DNA from: a virus | Length of the DNA: 64,000 bases | Reading direction: 5' to 3' (one strand) | IMG/VR virus record: IMGVR_UViG_3300050014_000073 | Location: 1 to 64,000 of that record | In this document: positions 8,474 to 41,259 of the stretch, one piece after another | How positions within the stretch are numbered: position 1 is the first letter of the stretch | How the letters are laid out: each line of letters opens with the position of its first letter | Notes under the pieces: generated by a model | The model's database searches: none | Told to the model about the DNA's origin: nothing | Seen by the model: only the letters and a program-made list of their open reading frames with translations | Program-made: the position numbers and the translations under genes

Positions 8474-8572
8474 TTTAGCGACCCTAGGACCGTCGCTGCA
8501 TCCTAACCTATGGAAAAGTACCTAACAACCCGTCCGGACGTGTCCTAGCGACCCGTAGCGATCAGGTTTAGG
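8474..8572 (-). repeat. dispersed two-box element, copy 1
   Basis: CTACGGGTCGCTAGG-47 nt-GCGACGGTCCTAGGGTCGCTAAA; 32 bp identical to 41687-41718. Confidence 0.8.
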
Positions 8573-8587
8573 TCCCTAATGGACAGT

Positions 8588-8687
8588 GTTTCAATCCACG
8601 CCGCTCGCGCGGGCAGCGACGACATTTTAGTTACGCTCCTAATGCCACCACCTGATTTCAATCCACGCCGCTCGCGTGGGCGGCGAC
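8588..8687 (-). CRISPR. type I-C-like CRISPR mini-array (2 repeats, 1 spacer)
   Basis: 33-nt repeats 8655-8687 and 8588-8620 (GTCGCYGCCCRCGCGAGCGGCGTGGATTGAAAY) around a 34-nt spacer 8621-8654; no cas genes in window. Confidence 0.92.
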
Positions 8688-12836: not shown

Positions 12837-13010
12837 TTACTCCTTGTCCTTGTTATCGTTGTCTTTAGAGTTGTCGAAGTTCAACATGCGACGTAGATGT
12901 TGCCGTTTCTCTTCGAAGAATGTTCGTACGGAAATTCTGATGACCGCCGTCACCGCAATCACAACGAGAAGCGGCCCAGCTACGAATTCGATGACGGGAG
13001 TGAGTGCCAT
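12837..13010 (-). CDS. small membrane protein (57 aa, not in ORF track)
   Basis: MALTPVIEFVAGPLLVVIAVTAVIRI..., GGAG RBS, fills operon gap. Confidence 0.6.
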   Translation of the reverse strand: MALTPVIEFVAGPLLVVIAVTAVIRISVRTFFEEKRQHLRRMLNFDNSKDNDNKDKE

Positions 13011-13016
13011 AATTAT

Positions 13017-13505
13017 TTACTCTCCGGGGAAGCGATCTTTCAGTCGGCGGCGGGACTCTTTCGTTTTCTCAGCAGCAGCTTCGATGGATCGCCCCATCGA
13101 ATACTCGGACTGCACCATATTCTCAACAATACGCAAACAGTCTCTCCGCATCCGAAACGCTTCCACAACAAGTTGGGAATAGATATCGAGAGTCTCGGTG
13201 CGAGCCAACTTCTTTGCGAAGTCTTCGACGATTGTGTTGGTGAGAAGCAGTGCGTCAATGTTCCCTTCAGTAAGCTTATTGCCGTTGGCGCGGGCGTCTT
13301 CTCGGATTTTGAGCTCCTTCTCAGCACGAATCTTCTCCCACGCCATTTTCGCTGCTGTCTTGTTTTCGAGGCATTGAAGACGATAGTCTATCGCTGTCAC
13401 GAAGAGGACACTATTTTCAGCAGCTGCTTGTACGACGTTATCGGGAGAGAAGTCAATCTTCTCAAGAAGGACTGAGACGTTGATAGGTTTGCTAACGGGA
13501 TTCAT
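13017..13505 (-). CDS. helical protein, UvsY-like recombination mediator candidate
   Basis: KLTEGNIDA motif, helical, next to SSB and RecA. Confidence 0.55.
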   Translation of the reverse strand: MNPVSKPINVSVLLEKIDFSPDNVVQAAAENSVLFVTAIDYRLQCLENKTAAKMAWEKIRAEKELKIREDARANGNKLTEGNIDALLLTNTIVEDFAKKLARTETLDIYSQLVVEAFRMRRDCLRIVENMVQSEYSMGRSIEAAAEKTKESRRRLKDRFPGE

Positions 13506-26288: not shown

Positions 26289-26624
26289 TTATACGGTTAC
26301 TGGATCACTGTTCCTTCTGGCAATTTTCCTAGACTGTAACACAGCGCGCCTTTGATGGTTAACGGAATGCAGGTAGGGAGTACCCACGCCCTCTCCAAAG
26401 TTCTCAGCGATTTCCGGTGCGAAGGTGAAGTAGCAGTATAGTGGGTCTTTCAGGACTGGCATAAGCATCCTCTCCGCGTGGGCCTTTCCTATGCCGCGAG
26501 ACCGCAGGTAGAACAGCGCCTCTTCGGGGAAACCCGCCGTGGACGGAGACAGGAAGTGCTGCTGTTGGAGTTTATCGTCTTCGCCTGGAGTCCATTCGGG
26601 ATTCGGAATCATTTTGGGAATCAC
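26289..26624 (-). CDS. small protein with SufB/SufD C-terminal-like motif
   Basis: EEALFYLRSRGI..AERML. Confidence 0.55.
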   Translation of the reverse strand: MIPKMIPNPEWTPGEDDKLQQQHFLSPSTAGFPEEALFYLRSRGIGKAHAERMLMPVLKDPLYCYFTFAPEIAENFGEGVGTPYLHSVNHQRRAVLQSRKIARRNSDPVTV

Positions 26625-35149: not shown

Positions 35150-35741
35150 GTTCTTCCGGCTGTCACAGGAAATGGTCTTCGGGAATCGTCTTCAGCAATT
35201 CGGGTGGAAACTCTTCGATGAAATGTTTCAAGACTGCCGGAACGCAAGATGTATTGGTCGCGAACCTTGGTACGATAGCGAACTTCCTCCTATGCCTGAA
35301 AAGGTCAGTGTTAGGAACGTACTTGCAGGTGGCGATGAACGGGTTCAACGGTATCGTCTCGGACCAGCTTTCGCTCATGCTCATTGTGTCTCGTTGATCA
35401 AGACCCACATCGTCACTCCTGAACAGCTCATACTTGATGAGAGTGCTCCAGATCATCTAGTCACGTTGCAAGCAGAAGTCCGGAATAGCGAAAGGTTTAT
35501 TGACATGCGATTCGCGCTGCATTCTGGAGTAGGGATGCGACCTGCTTATGCCGCAATGAAGCCCGTGAGTGGGATTCGGGCCGTGACAATCCTGAAAGAG
35601 TACCTGGACGCACCGTCTTGGGACAACCTCTGTGAAATTCTTCATGTATATAGCGAAAGTGTCGTAGAGCTGAGTTCGTACTCAGTTCCAGTAGGAGTTC
35701 TGGGTCTCTCGACAATTATTTGGGAAGTGAGGAATTATTGA
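35124..35741 (+). CDS. hypothetical protein
   Basis: GGAG RBS before ATG 35124. Confidence 0.65.
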   Translation: MPKVRSKAEFFRLSQEMVFGNRLQQFGWKLFDEMFQDCRNARCIGREPWYDSELPPMPEKVSVRNVLAGGDERVQRYRLGPAFAHAHCVSLIKTHIVTPEQLILDESAPDHLVTLQAEVRNSERFIDMRFALHSGVGMRPAYAAMKPVSGIRAVTILKEYLDAPSWDNLCEILHVYSESVVELSSYSVPVGVLGLSTIIWEVRNY

Positions 35742-35742
35742 T

Positions 35743-35978
35743 ATGAGAGTTCTTGTTGTTGTTGGTGGCCAGCCTGGATCTGAAGCTAAAGGAAAGGCAT
35801 GCGTATTTGTCTGGATTACCTAGACGCAAAGGACAGAAACGTTCGTAGGAGCGTCGATTTGGGTAAGAGATCTCACAAGTTCCTTCACGAGTTGGAGACC
35901 CGTACGGAACTGAGAGTAGGTCTTGCATTCACAGGTCCGCATCAAGACGATCTCGTTTATTGGGATTCTGTTTTGTGA
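35743..35978 (+). pseudogene. internally deleted adenylosuccinate-synthetase-family gene (PurZ-like)
   Basis: N-terminus MRVLVVVGGQPGSEAKGK; out-of-frame C-terminus ICLDYLD..FLHELETRTELRVGLAFTGP. Confidence 0.75.
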
Positions 35979-36009
35979 TGTCAATCTCCTTTTGCCAAAA
36001 ACCATTCGC

Positions 36010-36038
36010 TTTACTTTTCTATCGCGTTAGGGTAAAGT
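36010..36038 (+). promoter_or_regulatory. sigma70-like promoter
   Basis: TTTACT-17-TAAAGT; same CGCTTTACT context as 26680. Confidence 0.4.
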
Positions 36039-36145
36039 AGTAAGTTAAAGTACTCTTTGGGGTCCTATCTCGTTGATAGGATTAGCTTGCGGCGCGAGTA
36101 GAGACGTTTTCAACGGCTCGTTTGCCAGACAGGTGACCATACTCC

Positions 36146-36523
36146 GTGTCTCCTCGTAAATCACACAAGCTTCTTAAGGGCCCAGCTCTGTCCGAGATCC
36201 TTCGGGTCACAGTTCACCAAGTCAAGTGGTTCGTCGCGGGCCAGCCTACTCTTTTGATTCCTCCTTCAACGGCGCTTGCTCTTGTGAGAGAGGGCGAGTA
36301 TGAAGGTAAGGCAAGTGCCCAGCGAGTCTACTACATACGTGAAATTGACAATTGTCCAAAGCCTGTATGCAATCCTTCGTATTGGGACGACCGTGCTGTC
36401 TACCCTGGTGAAACAGATTCGCCTTCACGACATACTGTAGACCTCTGGGACCAAATTCTCAAGCGCCGTTCCAGTCGCGTAGCTGTTCAAGTTGTCGCCG
36501 CCCACGCGAGCGGCGTGGATTGA
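36146..36523 (+). CDS. hypothetical protein whose stop codon lies inside a CRISPR repeat
   Basis: 125-aa ORF. Confidence 0.55.
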   Translation: MSPRKSHKLLKGPALSEILRVTVHQVKWFVAGQPTLLIPPSTALALVREGEYEGKASAQRVYYIREIDNCPKPVCNPSYWDDRAVYPGETDSPSRHTVDLWDQILKRRSSRVAVQVVAAHASGVD

Positions 36524-36526
36524 AAT
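36494..36526 (+). CRISPR. solitary type I-C-like repeat
   Basis: GTCGCCGCCCACGCGAGCGGCGTGGATTGAAAT, identical to reverse complement of 8655-8687. Confidence 0.88.
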
Positions 36527-36540
36527 CAGGTATTTGAAGA

Positions 36541-36873
36541 ATGGCTTCTCCTTCTTCCGGTTTCCTCGCAGCGTCGCTTTCATCTGCAGCTCCCGCTATT
36601 AGTTCCCGCCTTCGTTCCTCTGTTCGTTCCGCTCTTAACTCGCATCAGTCATTGAAAGCCGTCCGCGGTCGCGGATCAGAAGTTCAGTCACATCGTTCAG
36701 CTCTTGTCTACTTGCGCGAGCTTGAAGCTGAACTTTGTTTGGTCCAGAACTTGTTGTTGGACGCTTGGAAAGAGTGCGACTACTCGCGGGATTTCCGGAA
36801 GTTTATTCGTCATACTGACCAGGCTCAGCAGCGACTTCATCAAGCGATCAAGAAGCTTGCCAGGACCGTATAA
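36541..36873 (+). CDS. hypothetical protein
   Basis: Ends ACC GTA TAA. Confidence 0.6.
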   Translation: MASPSSGFLAASLSSAAPAISSRLRSSVRSALNSHQSLKAVRGRGSEVQSHRSALVYLRELEAELCLVQNLLLDAWKECDYSRDFRKFIRHTDQAQQRLHQAIKKLARTV

Positions 36874-36874
36874 T
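36866..36874 (+). promoter_or_regulatory. CCGTATAAT promoter-like motif (representative copy)
   Basis: Exact copies also at 5648, 13511, 18073, 26288, 26642 (minus); variants at 27802, 30728, 33275 (plus). Confidence 0.7.
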
Positions 36875-36880
36875 CAGGTT

Positions 36881-37054
36881 ATGAGAAATTGGAAAGACGA
36901 TCCAAAGGCAGTTGAGGCAGTTGAGTATCTTCTGGGCATCGGAATGAATGCGGACGAGTTCCTTCAAGCAGATATAGAAGAGAGCAGTGATTTGGAATCT
37001 GATGATGCCGATCCGGAAGTAGAAAGCCGTATTCATGAGGTTGTTGAGGAATAG
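36881..37054 (+). CDS. small acidic protein, probably leaderless
   Basis: ATG 6 nt after TATAAT; very D/E rich. Confidence 0.6.
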   Translation: MRNWKDDPKAVEAVEYLLGIGMNADEFLQADIEESSDLESDDADPEVESRIHEVVEE

Positions 37055-37055
37055 T

Positions 37056-37319
37056 ATGCCTATCCGTCAATGCAAGAACGGCCACCTGACAGGCTTTCGA
37101 AACTGTTCACTATGCGGCAGCAAGCAGACTCGTGATGTAGCGTGGAAGGCAGTTGCATCTCCTGATGTTGAGGAAGTTGCATCTCCTGCTGCAGAAGTGA
37201 AGCCTCTTCACGTTTCGTTCCTCAATCAGTTCCGGGTTTGGAGAGAGAAGCATCGGAAGGCTGTTCAGCTTCGATTGCGTACTGCACGTTGGGGATTCAA
37301 GGTGCACGAGAGGATATGA
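37056..37319 (+). CDS. zinc-ribbon hypothetical protein
   Basis: CKNGH..CSLC. Confidence 0.5.
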   Translation: MPIRQCKNGHLTGFRNCSLCGSKQTRDVAWKAVASPDVEEVASPAAEVKPLHVSFLNQFRVWREKHRKAVQLRLRTARWGFKVHERI

Positions 37320-37530
37320 GCAGTGAAAGGCAGAGACAAGAGGCGAAGAGCCCAGTCGCGAAGGCGGACAGCTTTGGAGCACCGCTATACGACGAGCAAT
37401 ACGACTACTGGCTCCTCAAGTCTTACAGCAATCCCCGAAATGGTCTCTGGATCAGAATTGAGCTGGTCCGAGCAATTCGAGACACAGGCCAATCCAGAAA
37501 GTCCGATCTTTTTGGAGGGGGTGGAATGAA

Positions 37531-37794
37531 ATGAGCACTCACGTTGTTATCATCGACCGTGACAGCTTCACTCCTCGGCATCTGGAAGCACCGAATCAGT
37601 TCATCATTGAAGTCAACTCCCAAGGCTTCAACGCATACCAGACTACGAGCAAAGGCGAGCGTGAACTGATAGCAACTAGTGCCTCCGTTCTCACGTTTGC
37701 TGCAGTCATGGCGAGGATTATCCATGACGCAGGCTTTGCTGAGCAAGTTCACTTCCTGGCCGTGAAGCTGGACCCGATGGAGGTCAAGCCGTGA
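37531..37794 (+). CDS. hypothetical protein
   Basis: RBS and operon packing. Confidence 0.55.
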   Translation: MSTHVVIIDRDSFTPRHLEAPNQFIIEVNSQGFNAYQTTSKGERELIATSASVLTFAAVMARIIHDAGFAEQVHFLAVKLDPMEVKP

Positions 37795-38066
37795 TCACGA
37801 TTTGGAAATACCCTCTTCGTGTTCAATGTGAACAGAACATTGATATGCCTGAAGGTGCTCAGGTCCTCTGCGTACAGAATCAAGGTCCTGTTCATACACC
37901 TCTTCCTTTCCTTTGGGCGAAGGTTAACACTGAGAAGAAACTCGTTCCGAAAAAGATCTTGATTCGGGGAACAGGACACCCATTGGAAGGGGACGCGCAT
38001 TATATAGGAACGTTCCAGATAGATGGAGGAGATCTTGTCTTCCACGTCTTCGAGAGGTTTCTATGA
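37791..38066 (+). CDS. conserved phage hypothetical protein
   Basis: TIWKYPL..MPEGAQVL..GTGH..YIGTFQ..VFHVFE pattern. Confidence 0.75.
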   Translation: MITIWKYPLRVQCEQNIDMPEGAQVLCVQNQGPVHTPLPFLWAKVNTEKKLVPKKILIRGTGHPLEGDAHYIGTFQIDGGDLVFHVFERFL

Positions 38067-38377
38067 TCATTCGTGCTCTCGATCTTCAAGGAGTTCCAGT
38101 CCCGATGAAGGCTATGCGTCTTCATGGTATCTTTTCTTTAGAGGCACGATCTCATGAACATCTATACGTTGGTCCAATCGAGATCGAATCTGACGAAGAG
38201 TATGAACGGGAAGAAAGACAAGCATACGTTCCAATGGGGGTTTGCATCATGAACTGCCAGCCTCGAAAGAACTATAAGGAAGTTCCTCCCTGCGAGAAGT
38301 CAATCTCGTTGAAGGAGTACCTCCTGTGGTTCGGCTTCGTCGTACTCCTGGCAATCCTCAGTCGGTGGTGGAGTTAA
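38063..38377 (+). CDS. hypothetical protein with C-terminal TM
   Basis: ATGA coupling. Confidence 0.55.
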   Translation: MIIRALDLQGVPVPMKAMRLHGIFSLEARSHEHLYVGPIEIESDEEYEREERQAYVPMGVCIMNCQPRKNYKEVPPCEKSISLKEYLLWFGFVVLLAILSRWWS

Positions 38378-38594
38378 TGACTGCAATCCTCGAACGCCTG
38401 AACCGCTGGGTCCAAGCTCTTCCCAGCAATGATTCAATACCTGTAACGCATCGGGAAGCTGATATCCTGGCAGAAGGCCTCTCAAAGAACTCTTTCTACT
38501 TCAAGATGTCAAACGCGAGTTCTGATCCTCACGTCCTCCGCAACTCCCTCCAGAAGGGAACATTCCGGTTCTGTAATCATAAGGTGTTCGTGCT

Positions 38595-38861
38595 ATGATG
38601 ACCCCTCACAATTCAAAAGCAATCCAAGAGATGATCGCAGTCGGCGTCATTCCCCAAAACTGCCAGAAGTTTGAGATGCTATCCGACGCCGAAGGAGCTG
38701 TTCTGTTCAAGTACGAAGTCTTTGCTACCGAGGAACAGGTTCAGCAGATTGCCGATGCTCTTAAACGGAATCCAGAAGAAGCTCAGCGGATTACCAGAAC
38801 AGTGTTGTTCGGGGTAAATGACAAGGACAGTTCCCCTACAGCTAAAGTAGAACTTCCATAA
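38595..38861 (+). CDS. hypothetical protein flanked by 21-bp direct repeats
   Basis: CATAAGGTGTTCGTGCTRTGA at 38578 and 38857. Confidence 0.6.
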   Translation: MMTPHNSKAIQEMIAVGVIPQNCQKFEMLSDAEGAVLFKYEVFATEEQVQQIADALKRNPEEAQRITRTVLFGVNDKDSSPTAKVELP

Positions 38862-38890
38862 GGTGTTCGTGCTGTGATTGATATCGTTCA

Positions 38891-38923
38891 GTCGCTGCCC
38901 GCGCGAGCAGCGTGGATTGAAAC
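38891..38923 (+). CRISPR. solitary type I-C-like repeat
   Basis: GTCGCTGCCCGCGCGAGCAGCGTGGATTGAAAC; one mismatch to reverse complement of 8588-8620. Confidence 0.88.
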
Positions 38924-38949
38924 AACCCTTACCTCCTATTAAAATTCCA

Positions 38950-39306
38950 ATGGCACAAGGAAGTCAGTATCACGTCAACGCCCGGGATAAAGACCGGGTC
39001 CAGTGTATGGCAGAGGGCGGAGTTCCAGAGACTCGGATTGCAGAAATCCTCGACATGGCTCCGAAGACCCTACGCAAGTATTACGGAAAGCTCATCAAGG
39101 ATTGTTTGGACGAAACCGTAGGCAAGATTGGTCACTCGATTGTCCAGAGAGCCTTAGATCTGAACTGCCGTGACGGGGCTTCCTGTGCAATGTTCTATCT
39201 CAAGACCCGAGGCAACAAGTACGGATGGTCCGAGAAGATTGGGTTTGATGACGCAGCTGCTAGCTTGATTAAGCGGGTCATTGGCGTGAAAGACGACGAA
39301 ATCTGA
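38950..39306 (+). CDS. terminase small subunit
   Basis: HTH IAEILDMAPKTLRKYY, AMFYLKTRG..GW; upstream of TerL. Confidence 0.8.
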   Translation: MAQGSQYHVNARDKDRVQCMAEGGVPETRIAEILDMAPKTLRKYYGKLIKDCLDETVGKIGHSIVQRALDLNCRDGASCAMFYLKTRGNKYGWSEKIGFDDAAASLIKRVIGVKDDEI

Positions 39307-39323
39307 TCCAGGTTGGAAACCCT

Positions 39324-39716
39324 TTGCGTGAACATCGTGTTACTCACCCAACGTTCGGAGTTGTTACCTGGTTCGAAATCAAAGCTGGAACTGCTTCTCT
39401 TACCAAGTCTCTCAAAAAGCGGATTTGTAGCTGGTGCCTTAAGGAAGTTCATGGGTCTCGCCGGACACGTTGTGGAAGTAAGGAATGCGATGAGGCCTTG
39501 CACCGTGCGCAGCGTTATTCATATTGTCGAGGCATTCAGCTTCGTGAACACCGATTCTGCGAGTGTGGAGTACGCGGATCTGAAGTTGACCACGTTGTTC
39601 CAGTCAGTCTTGGTGGAACTGGTGACAAGAGCAACCTCCGTACTTTGTGTCGTGCCTGCCATAAGGTTGCAACTGCTTTGCTTCGCGCAATGAAATCCAA
39701 GTACAAGGCTATATAA
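39324..39716 (+). CDS. HNH endonuclease
   Basis: EVDHVVPVSLGGTGDKSNLRTLCRACH. Confidence 0.88.
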   Translation: MREHRVTHPTFGVVTWFEIKAGTASLTKSLKKRICSWCLKEVHGSRRTRCGSKECDEALHRAQRYSYCRGIQLREHRFCECGVRGSEVDHVVPVSLGGTGDKSNLRTLCRACHKVATALLRAMKSKYKAI

Positions 39717-39720
39717 AGCA

Positions 39721-41259
39721 GTGGCTGCTCTCGCTCAACCTCCGATCAAGAAGCAAAAGTGGATACCGAGGAAGGAATTTCTCAAGCAGATCCACGACCC
39801 TGCTTTTCAAGCACCTAAGGTTCAGTACATCGACTACGAACCGAGGGGCAACGTCAAGGAGATGTTCCGTCATAAGGAACGTGAGATTATCCTTGCAGGT
39901 CCGGCTGGAACAGGTAAGAGCCGAGGGGCTCTTGAGAAGCTTCATTGGATTTGTGAGAAGTATCCTCGCGCTCGCTGCCTCATGCTGCGCAAGACTCGTC
40001 GCAGTTTGACGCAGTCGGGTATTATTACGTATGAGCAGCGTGTTCTTCCCGCTCCCAACTACGTTCCGTTCCACGGTGGCGAACAAGCCTACATCTATCC
40101 GAACGGGAGCATCCTAGCAGTAGGAGGCCTTGACGATCCGAACAAGCTGTTCTCTTCGGATTGGGATGTCATCTTCGTCCAACAGACTGAGGAGTTGAAC
40201 TTAGGGGAATGGGAGAGCTTGCTCCGGTCTCTTCGTTCATGGAAGGTTCCATATCAGCAGGTCATTGGTGACTGTAACCCTGGGCCTCCTACCCATTGGA
40301 TTCTGTCCCGCAAGTCAGCGGGGTCCTGTACCTTTTTAGAGACGCGTCATGAAGACAATCCGGAACTGTGGAACGGCTACTGCCCGATGCACGGGAAGAT
40401 CGAACCGGAGTGGACCTGTCGAGGACGCGAATACATCTCGGTGCTTGACGCCTATACAGGAGTCCGGTTCCTTCGTCTCCGCAAAGGGATCTGGGCAGCT
40501 GCTGAAGGGATTGTCTATGAAGACGTCTGGGATGTAGCGGTTCACGTCATTGATCGCTTTGTCACAACTCCTTTAGATAAGGACCAGGTTCCTAAGAGCT
40601 GGCCACGCTATTGGGGCGTTGACTTTGGCTATACGAACCCCTTCGTCTGGAGCGCCTTTGCGGAAGACCCTGACGGACGTCTGTTCCGGTACAAAGAGAT
40701 CTACCGGACGAAGACTCTTGTTGAGGACCATGCCAAGCGGATTCTAGAAGTGACGCAGGACGAACCTAAGCCTCAGTGGATTGTCTGCGATACGGATGCT
40801 GAAGACCGCGCTACTTTAGAGAAGCATCTTGGGATGAAGACAGTCGGAGCTTGGAAGTCCGTCAGTCCTGGAATCCAGGCGGTCTCAACGCGCCTCAAGA
40901 TTGCCGGCGACGGGAAGCCTCGGTTGTTCTATCTTAAGAACTCTGTCGTGGACGTTGATCCTTTGCTCCTGGCGGAACATAAGCCAACTTGCACTGAAGA
41001 AGAGTACCCAGTATATGTTTGGGACACATCGAACAACCGGAAGCGCGGTGAAGAGCCTGTAAAGGAATTTGACCACGGGCAAGACTTGAGCCGGTACGTC
41101 ATAACTAAAAAAGATGACACTTCCGGCAAGAAGCCGAAGTTCTTTGCGATTGGTTCCGTGACGAAGACGGGTGGTTCAGGAGAAGGTGGCAGCTTGGCTC
41201 GTCCTTCGCCTTGGAGAATGGGTGGAGGAATCGGATTGGGAACGCGGTGGGGACAGTGA
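39721..41259 (+). CDS. terL: terminase large subunit
   Basis: GPAGTGKS, DCNP, GVDFGYTNP, DHGQD..RY. Confidence 0.93.
   Translation: MAALAQPPIKKQKWIPRKEFLKQIHDPAFQAPKVQYIDYEPRGNVKEMFRHKEREIILAGPAGTGKSRGALEKLHWICEKYPRARCLMLRKTRRSLTQSGIITYEQRVLPAPNYVPFHGGEQAYIYPNGSILAVGGLDDPNKLFSSDWDVIFVQQTEELNLGEWESLLRSLRSWKVPYQQVIGDCNPGPPTHWILSRKSAGSCTFLETRHEDNPELWNGYCPMHGKIEPEWTCRGREYISVLDAYTGVRFLRLRKGIWAAAEGIVYEDVWDVAVHVIDRFVTTPLDKDQVPKSWPRYWGVDFGYTNPFVWSAFAEDPDGRLFRYKEIYRTKTLVEDHAKRILEVTQDEPKPQWIVCDTDAEDRATLEKHLGMKTVGAWKSVSPGIQAVSTRLKIAGDGKPRLFYLKNSVVDVDPLLLAEHKPTCTEEEYPVYVWDTSNNRKRGEEPVKEFDHGQDLSRYVITKKDDTSGKKPKFFAIGSVTKTGGSGEGGSLARPSPWRMGGGIGLGTRWGQ

Follow-up and report, generated by a model that had tools for sequence, protein, structure and literature searches.

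RacrIC1, a type I-C RNA anti-CRISPR from a prophage of Bifidobacterium pseudocatenulatum, has been validated experimentally; it shares a bicistronic RNA with acrIC5 and sits 11 nt beyond that gene (Camara-Wilpert et al. 2023, PMC10651486). Viral solitary repeat units (SRUs; Faure et al. 2019 and SRUFinder, both as described in PMC10651486) are recognised by identity and coverage of 90% or more against a known repeat, a bit score of 41.1 or higher, the absence of any further repeat, full or partial, within 100 bp and an intergenic position. Cracr arrays, like the host RNAs CreR and CreA, give repeat-derived crRNA-like RNAs, and the Cracrs of mobile elements described by Liu et al. (bioRxiv 10.1101/2024.10.29.618823) are aimed at type I systems, including I-C. 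Virus-borne CRISPR mini-arrays are described as being used against related viruses (PMC11656645).

The locus studied here is a complete 33-nt type I-C CRISPR repeat, named Rd, at positions 38891–38923 (+) of the window, i.e. the whole 64,000-nt stretch that was analysed from the 83,140-nt IMG/VR record of a peat-soil phage. RacrIC1 is its closest precedent. RacrIC1 as described in PMC10651486 and Rd are both solitary I-C repeat mimics in a phage, just 3′ of a small gene and with no cas genes nearby, and RacrIC1 shares an RNA with its upstream gene, as we propose for Rd from its orientation. Unlike RacrIC1 in that description, Rd has no known Acr as a neighbour, belongs to a phage with two solitary copies plus a mini-array, shares a G16A change with all of these copies and probably faces an acidobacterial host.

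Rd also shows the features of SRUs as PMC10651486 gives them. It matches the host repeat at 97% identity (32/33) over its full length, with 56.3–58.0 bits under our own blastn settings, above the SRU threshold. The best score in the 100-nt flanks is 15–16 of 33 against a background mean of 16.5, the nearest copy is 2.4 kb off, and the repeat is intergenic, between a stop at 38861 and the ATG at 38950. The preliminary description had proposed a Racr: on this sequence evidence "Racr candidate" seems a fair label, while the mechanism is a proposal, set out below. SRUs often lie directly downstream of a predicted promoter (PMC10651486), whereas no sigma-70-like promoter was found directly upstream of Rd or of any of the other three copies.

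The resemblance to Cracrs is partial. In the account of bioRxiv 10.1101/2024.10.29.618823, multi-unit viral Cracr arrays aim their units at variants of one system type, which parallels the two stem versions found in this phage. A Cracr is defined there by 9 or more PAM-proximal nt that match a CreR/CreA spacer or the promoter of cas or creT; for the phage repeats, no such match was found in the loci searched from related hosts (35 around cas5c and 19 with arrays). Taken as a whole, Rd fits a described class, RNA decoys against host CRISPR immunity being a known phage trick, and it introduces no new principle.

Four type I-C repeats in the phage genome

The features of the window to which the text refers are as follows.

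8588–8687 (−): mini-array, made of Ra (8655–8687), a 34-nt spacer and Rb (8588–8620)
36146–36523 (+): conserved 125-aa gene with 62 homologues at E ≤ 0.001; its last 9–10 codons and TGA stop come from Rc
36494–36526 (+): Rc, solitary type I-C repeat (C6, A11, A16, G19, T33)
36527–38890 (+): 2.36-kb cassette of small genes between Rc and Rd, in which DUF7352 alone is recognised
38595–38861 (+): 88-aa gene that ends 29 nt before Rd
38891–38923 (+): Rd, solitary type I-C repeat (T6, G11, A16, A19, C33) with the 11-nt 3′ handle TGGATTGAAAC
38924–38949 (+): 26-nt linker from Rd to terS; it lacks an SD motif and contains CCTCCT and, 4 nt ahead of the ATG, a TAAAAT box
38950–39306 (+): terS-like gene, 118 aa, named from gene order, a 33%-identical relative that matches PHROG 309 and a weak match to phrog_12540
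39324–39716 (+): HNH endonuclease gene
39721–41259 (+): terminase large subunit (TerL) gene

The sequence of Rd is GTCGCTGCCCGCGCGAGCAGCGTGGATTGAAAC, and that of the second solitary copy, Rc, is GTCGCCGCCCACGCGAGCGGCGTGGATTGAAAT. A degenerate 32-nt pattern built from Rd and the copy at 36494 was used to search for further copies. It gave four matches in the window against none in 100 dinucleotide shuffles, and even at a tolerance of 8 mismatches the rest of the 83,140-nt record contains no other copy. Ra equals Rc over all 33 nt and the identity runs on for 5 further nt (CAGGT); Rb differs from Rd solely at position 19. The T-ending repeat comes first and the C-ending one second, both in the mini-array and for Rc and Rd around the cassette. 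Each of the four copies points the same way as the genes around it and sits just past a gene end. An alignment of 12 host, viral and phage repeats has 28 columns without variation, and every one of these is preserved in all four copies. The 3′ handle of Rd is identical to that of the host repeats. An Rfam scan at the repeats returned no family, CRISPR direct-repeat or other, at E ≤ 1, and the 99-nt region around Rd had no match among GenBank phages.

That a solitary I-C repeat stands just before terS, as had been claimed from the letters alone, is borne out by the sequence of Rd and its 32/33 match to a host array. The preliminary description had likewise noted and compared the two solitary copies; that they bracket a variable cassette escaped it, and so, perhaps, did their link to the mini-array.

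The mini-array has a clamp-loader gene on one side and a fused SbcCD-like gene on the other. Like the anti-virus mini-arrays described in PMC11656645, it combines two host-type repeats with one spacer, here of 34 nt, in a phage. Rd differs from such units in being a single repeat, and the spacer of the separate 8588–8687 unit had no target in the phage itself (up to 10 mismatches), in IMG/VR (exact matches only) or in GenBank phages (E ≤ 10). Directly downstream of the mini-array, just before the start of the SbcCD-like gene, lies a dispersed two-box element (window 8474–8572, −).

CRISPR type, likely host and habitat

Species-representative genomes were searched with a pattern left free at positions 6, 11, 16 and 19. 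The 18 contigs retrieved comprised 12 from Acidobacteriota, 4 from Hydrogenedentota, 1 from Sumerlaeota and 1 from Rhizomicrobium, the acidobacterial tally being taken from contig titles (Bryobacterales, Terriglobia, Acidobacteriaceae, Sulfopaludibacter). One array repeat (L012/L034), 32/33 identical to Rd, adjoins a cas3-cas5c-cas8c-cas7-cas4-cas1c-cas2 operon in the classic I-C order (cas8c being csd1 and cas7 csd2). This operon was typed with the NCBIfam models TIGR01876, TIGR01863, TIGR02589 and TIGR03640, all above their cut-offs. At the level of sequence, Rd is thereby confirmed as a genuine type I-C CRISPR repeat. From the orientation of this array relative to cas2, the transcribed sense is GTCGC...GAAAC, and all four phage copies show this sense on the coding strand of their neighbouring genes.

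The nearest array repeats come mainly from acidobacterial MAGs, and the host is probably a member of the Acidobacteriota. Among 401 genomes sampled from the class, 25 have a Cas5c match at E ≤ 0.001. Peat and permafrost runs contain the phage repeatedly (20 rows from 19 studies), and contigs 90–95% alike to Rc from the same runs pile up on 36494–36525, where the depth reaches 157–294 in a DNA run against about 7 alongside. Among these contigs is one from an RNA library with the layout repeat–35 nt–repeat. Type I-C arrays of the Rd family are present in the habitat of the phage and apparently expressed there. A comparison of 141 spacers from 19 related arrays with the phage gave no match, the best (15/16 nt) being at chance level, so that these spacers give no sign of CRISPR pressure on the phage.

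The repeat family was found in two more IMG/VR contigs, as a solitary unit (L027) and as a two-repeat unit (L028). The two repeats of the latter (IMGVR_UViG_3300047539_000053) are about 34 nt apart and derive from a tandem duplication of the repeat plus about 27 nt of upstream flank; since the duplication took in the flank, the apparent spacer of this unit is a copy of the flank.

Stem variation and predicted folding

The stems of the two solitary copies are CGCTGC/GCAGCG in Rd and CGCCGC/GCGGCG in Rc. The pair 6–19 is C-G in Ra and Rc, U·G in Rb and U-A in Rd. This pair also covaries over the repeat family (CG 4, GC 2, UA 2, AU 1 and UG 1 in 10 distinct rows), and six of the eight stem pairs are invariant across the same number of distinct repeats. 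T6/A19 belongs to the commonest repeat of the host arrays L010, L012, L015, L016 and L024, and C6/G19 to that of L008, L020, L021, L025 and L026. As each version is thus the commonest in different host arrays, the difference within the phage could have been taken over from two host variants or be adjusted to them. The compensatory change on which the preliminary description had built an argument for selection on RNA structure is real, in that U-A replaces C-G, with a U·G intermediate in the mini-array, and the stem is kept. Such selection is not proven by it, because both versions occur in host arrays: the 6–19 difference may mirror two host repeat variants rather than selection inside the phage.

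Position 16 behaves differently from the host pattern, being A in all four phage copies and G in the commonest repeat of all 19 host loci. Exact searches for the A16-type repeat matched no IMG/VR contig, no GTDB species genome and one metagenome contig; the latter is a true array (L008), and only 1 of its 55 repeats carries A16. Either the four copies stem from one A16 ancestor or A16 arose more than once; with a single A16 ancestor, the path from C-G through U·G to U-A would have taken place within the phage.

A16 breaks the pair C9–G16. In the stem of Rd, six of the eight host pairs stack unbroken, and C10–G15 pairs too, beyond the broken C9–A16. The canonical 8-bp hairpin is predicted at −16.6 and −18.1 kcal/mol for host repeats, with an ensemble frequency of about 0.8; for the phage copies the canonical stem is predicted at only −8.9 to −11.1 kcal/mol, against −11.1 to −11.6 kcal/mol for a rival hairpin (9–14 with 20–25) that buries the expected cut site. 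Canonical pairing has a predicted probability of 0.13 in Rd, 0.21 in both Rc and Ra, and 0.01 in Rb. By these predictions the canonical hairpin is the minority fold in the phage copies, a second reason to regard selection on the RNA stem as unproven. Rd ends in the handle ...UGGAUUGAAAC, identical to the type I-C handle. The substrate rules of Cas5d worked out by Nam and by Garside in 2012 reportedly come down to the stem base plus the 3′ flank.

Genes and sequences flanking Rd

The 88-aa gene upstream of Rd is a real gene, with homologue clusters at 47–49% identity and no assigned function. The gene downstream of Rd is followed by the HNH gene and then by TerL. A relative of its product, 33% identical, matches PHROG 309 (terminase small subunit) and directly precedes TerL and portal genes. 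The protein itself weakly matches phrog_12540, a family without assigned function, and had no match to PDB sequences at E ≤ 1. On the strength of the gene order and the 33%-identical relative, "terS" is a reasonable name for the gene at 38950. Two things back its ATG as the true start: where the 112-aa homologue P0122 has its N-terminus, and the occurrence of the 118-aa form P0124 on 8 contigs. None of GGAG, GAGG, AGGA and AAGG occurs in the 20 nt before this ATG; the statement that the repeat ends 26 nt before a terS gene with no obvious RBS agrees with the sequence.

The TerL relatives in IMG/VR are only 45–51% identical (L005–L007), and those of terS 33% (L064–L066). The exact 11-nt handle motif is absent from the loci L005–L007, and one-mismatch 9-mer matches occur in five of the six relative loci (L005–L007, L064–L066). 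Closer TerL relatives, about 62% identical, exist on contigs of 75–103 kb.

Rc overlaps the last 30 nt of the 125-aa gene, and the conserved part of the protein ends before the repeat. This family, of no known function, includes a 5,174-aa relative in which 12 stretches match. A sister strain from a peat DNA run differs in two segments of the cassette between Rc and Rd, where 45 nt stand in place of 389 nt and 35 nt in place of 246 nt. The replaced segments lie at window 36896–37286 and 37773–38020, their substitutes are unrelated, and the region is a hot spot of gene turnover. The same strain lacks 38923–38929 (7 nt, directly after the repeat), which shortens the repeat-to-ATG distance from 26 to 19 nt. 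It is near-identical otherwise, with 0 substitutions in 1,245 nt, and because it is so close, the conservation of the repeat in it carries no information.

SD-less starts are common in this phage: by a crude count, 27 of 96 long ORFs lack an SD-like motif at all of the first six candidate starts. The genome holds 11 GTATAAT boxes, of which 6 lie 5–8 nt before a start codon, including one inside the cassette (at 36868, 6 nt before the ATG at 36881). The motif (about RMCCGTATAAT, 5–8 nt before starts) was seen at window 27804 and 36868 (+), at 26294, 18079 and 13517 (−) and at genome position 68876 (+), with no obvious −35 box. The sequence of this family suggests leaderless-type phage promoters.

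Possible roles of the solitary repeat

We put first, with even confidence for and against, the reading that Rd is a solitary repeat unit copied from a I-C array of Acidobacteriota-like soil bacteria and acts as a Racr-type RNA decoy. The mechanism proposed for it is inferred and would run as follows. Rd would be transcribed in the sense direction within a polycistronic phage RNA, between the end of the small-gene cassette and terS. Once host Cas5c had bound to its stem base and 11-nt handle, Cas5c, Cas7 and Cas8c would assemble on an RNA that is no proper crRNA, and the Cas proteins would thereby be drawn off the phage-targeting crRNAs. The two stem versions (C-G and U-A) might let the phage mimic two natural host repeat variants. 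Neither cas5c nor cas7 was found in the 83-kb phage record, and no neighbouring gene matched a known Acr family in Pfam or PHROGs. RNA-library contigs cover 36339–36861, bridging Rc, and 38700–38920, a coverage in which DNA carry-over is possible and which is no proof of transcription. The contig end at 38920 was considered as an RNA end and rejected, as it comes from a single run and falls at a strain-variant site; stretches that the RNA-library contigs leave uncovered carry no evidential weight either. Against a decoy speaks A16, which lowers the predicted stability of the canonical hairpin in all four copies.

The main rival holds that the solitary repeats are neutral relics, left by recombination with host arrays or by collapsed or duplicated mini-arrays and tolerated between genes without any role. 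Rc corresponds to the first mini-array repeat plus 5 flanking nt, suggesting a simple duplication; G16A weakens the predicted canonical fold in all copies, and a degenerate repeat near the end of the real array L008 has A16 too. That no target, promoter or Acr neighbour was found would also suit a relic. However, the host-invariant positions are intact in all four copies, the complete handle included, the sole varying paired position stays paired in all three of its states, and the four copies are all in the sense orientation. We judge such a neutral origin unlikely, and the readings in which Rd serves as a guide, a processing site or a promoter rank lower. The sequence after the repeat could act as a crRNA-like guide that represses host cas/creT promoters (a Cracr) or targets sibling phages lacking the insert. 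Phage Cracr arrays against I-C systems have been described in bioRxiv 10.1101/2024.10.29.618823, in related I-C operons of hosts cas5c is preceded by a repeat handle, an 18-nt palindrome and a promoter, so such circuits exist in the group, and a TTC lies one base off the Rd junction. The junction triplets themselves are TCA (Rd) and GTT (Rc), not TTC. When the four downstream "guides" are compared with the handle-adjacent sequences in the 35 loci around cas5c, the shared leading stretch never exceeds 3 nt, and the only PAM-plus-7-nt seed match there has 16/34 identity, which is chance level; the 19 array loci gave no PAM-plus-8 seeds and no 11-mers, and no repeat-free allele appeared among the four runs examined. 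With these results a guide function looks improbable.

Another group of readings places Rd in gene expression. Host Cas5c might cut the phage mRNA at Rc and Rd as borrowed processing sites, freeing a cassette mRNA with crRNA-like ends and setting the 5′ end and the translation of the terS message. Rc and Rd do enclose the 2.36-kb cassette with the T-ending type first and the C-ending type second, as the mini-array repeats do around their spacer, terS has no SD motif, and two twister-P1-like matches flank a small ORF elsewhere in the window. Yet SD-less starts are common and the leaderless-type GTATAAT family is a simpler explanation, an RNA-library contig runs uncut across Rc, the repeat-to-ATG distance drops from 26 to 19 nt in the sister strain, and an essential packaging gene that relied on a host defence enzyme would fail in Cas-less hosts. 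We give this processing little chance, and the earlier idea that terS expression is coupled to Cas5d finds no support, given that SD-less starts are common and the distance to the ATG varies. A wider version, in which Cas5c is a phage mRNA-processing enzyme that excises the mRNA of a strain-variable cassette from the terS/late message, G16A tunes the cleavage through the competing hairpin and twister-like ribozymes add self-cleavage sites, is if anything harder to credit. The faintest chance of all goes to a promoter, with the TTGAAA of the repeat as −35 and TAAAAT (38940–38945) as −10 of a nearly leaderless terS mRNA. TTGAAA/TAAAAT is the best promoter-like site in 35500–39800 (10/12 matches, 17-nt spacer), and the six of eleven GTATAAT boxes that lie close to start codons would be in keeping with such a message. 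But the region holds 4 such sites where shuffles give 3.1, the other three copies have no matching −10 box, and the 7-nt deletion of the sister strain shortens the spacer to 10 nt. That deletion shows that neither a fixed repeat-to-ATG distance nor the TTGAAA/TAAAAT promoter is conserved.

If the Racr-type decoy that we prefer is active, it would extend RNA anti-CRISPRs to phages of Acidobacteriota-like hosts of peat; such hosts are hard to culture, and phage-host links for them are therefore scarce. It would also give one phage with two natural stem variants of a repeat, possibly covering two host CRISPR variants. The shared G16A poses a concrete question, namely the effect of a weaker hairpin on cutting or binding by Cas5c.

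Twister-like matches and a pre-cas5c element of related hosts

No twister was found in the window at Rfam gathering thresholds. Two full-length twister-P1 matches lie below the threshold of 67.2 bits, at 132–191 (−) with 38.5 bits and at 597–652 (−) with 30.0 bits (E-values 1.2e-6 and 3.2e-4 in a 1-kb scan), and a small ORF is flanked by them. The match at 132–191 (−) keeps the conserved twister core (UAA ... CGGUCCCAAGCCCG ... GAGGG). The remark that the phage combines its repeats "with the twisters" goes back to these sub-threshold matches only.

A further observation concerns two Acidobacteriota I-C operons (L034, about 12950–13040, −; L030, about 1380–1480, +), in which a perfect palindrome of 18 nt comes after the handle GTGGATTGAAAC and leads on to a TTGAC(A/T)-17-TAT(AG/TA)T promoter just before cas5c. 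In L034, a TTC PAM stands at the reverse-strand copy of the palindrome. By its sequence, this pre-cas5c element looks like a CreR-like, self-regulating crRNA-like RNA.
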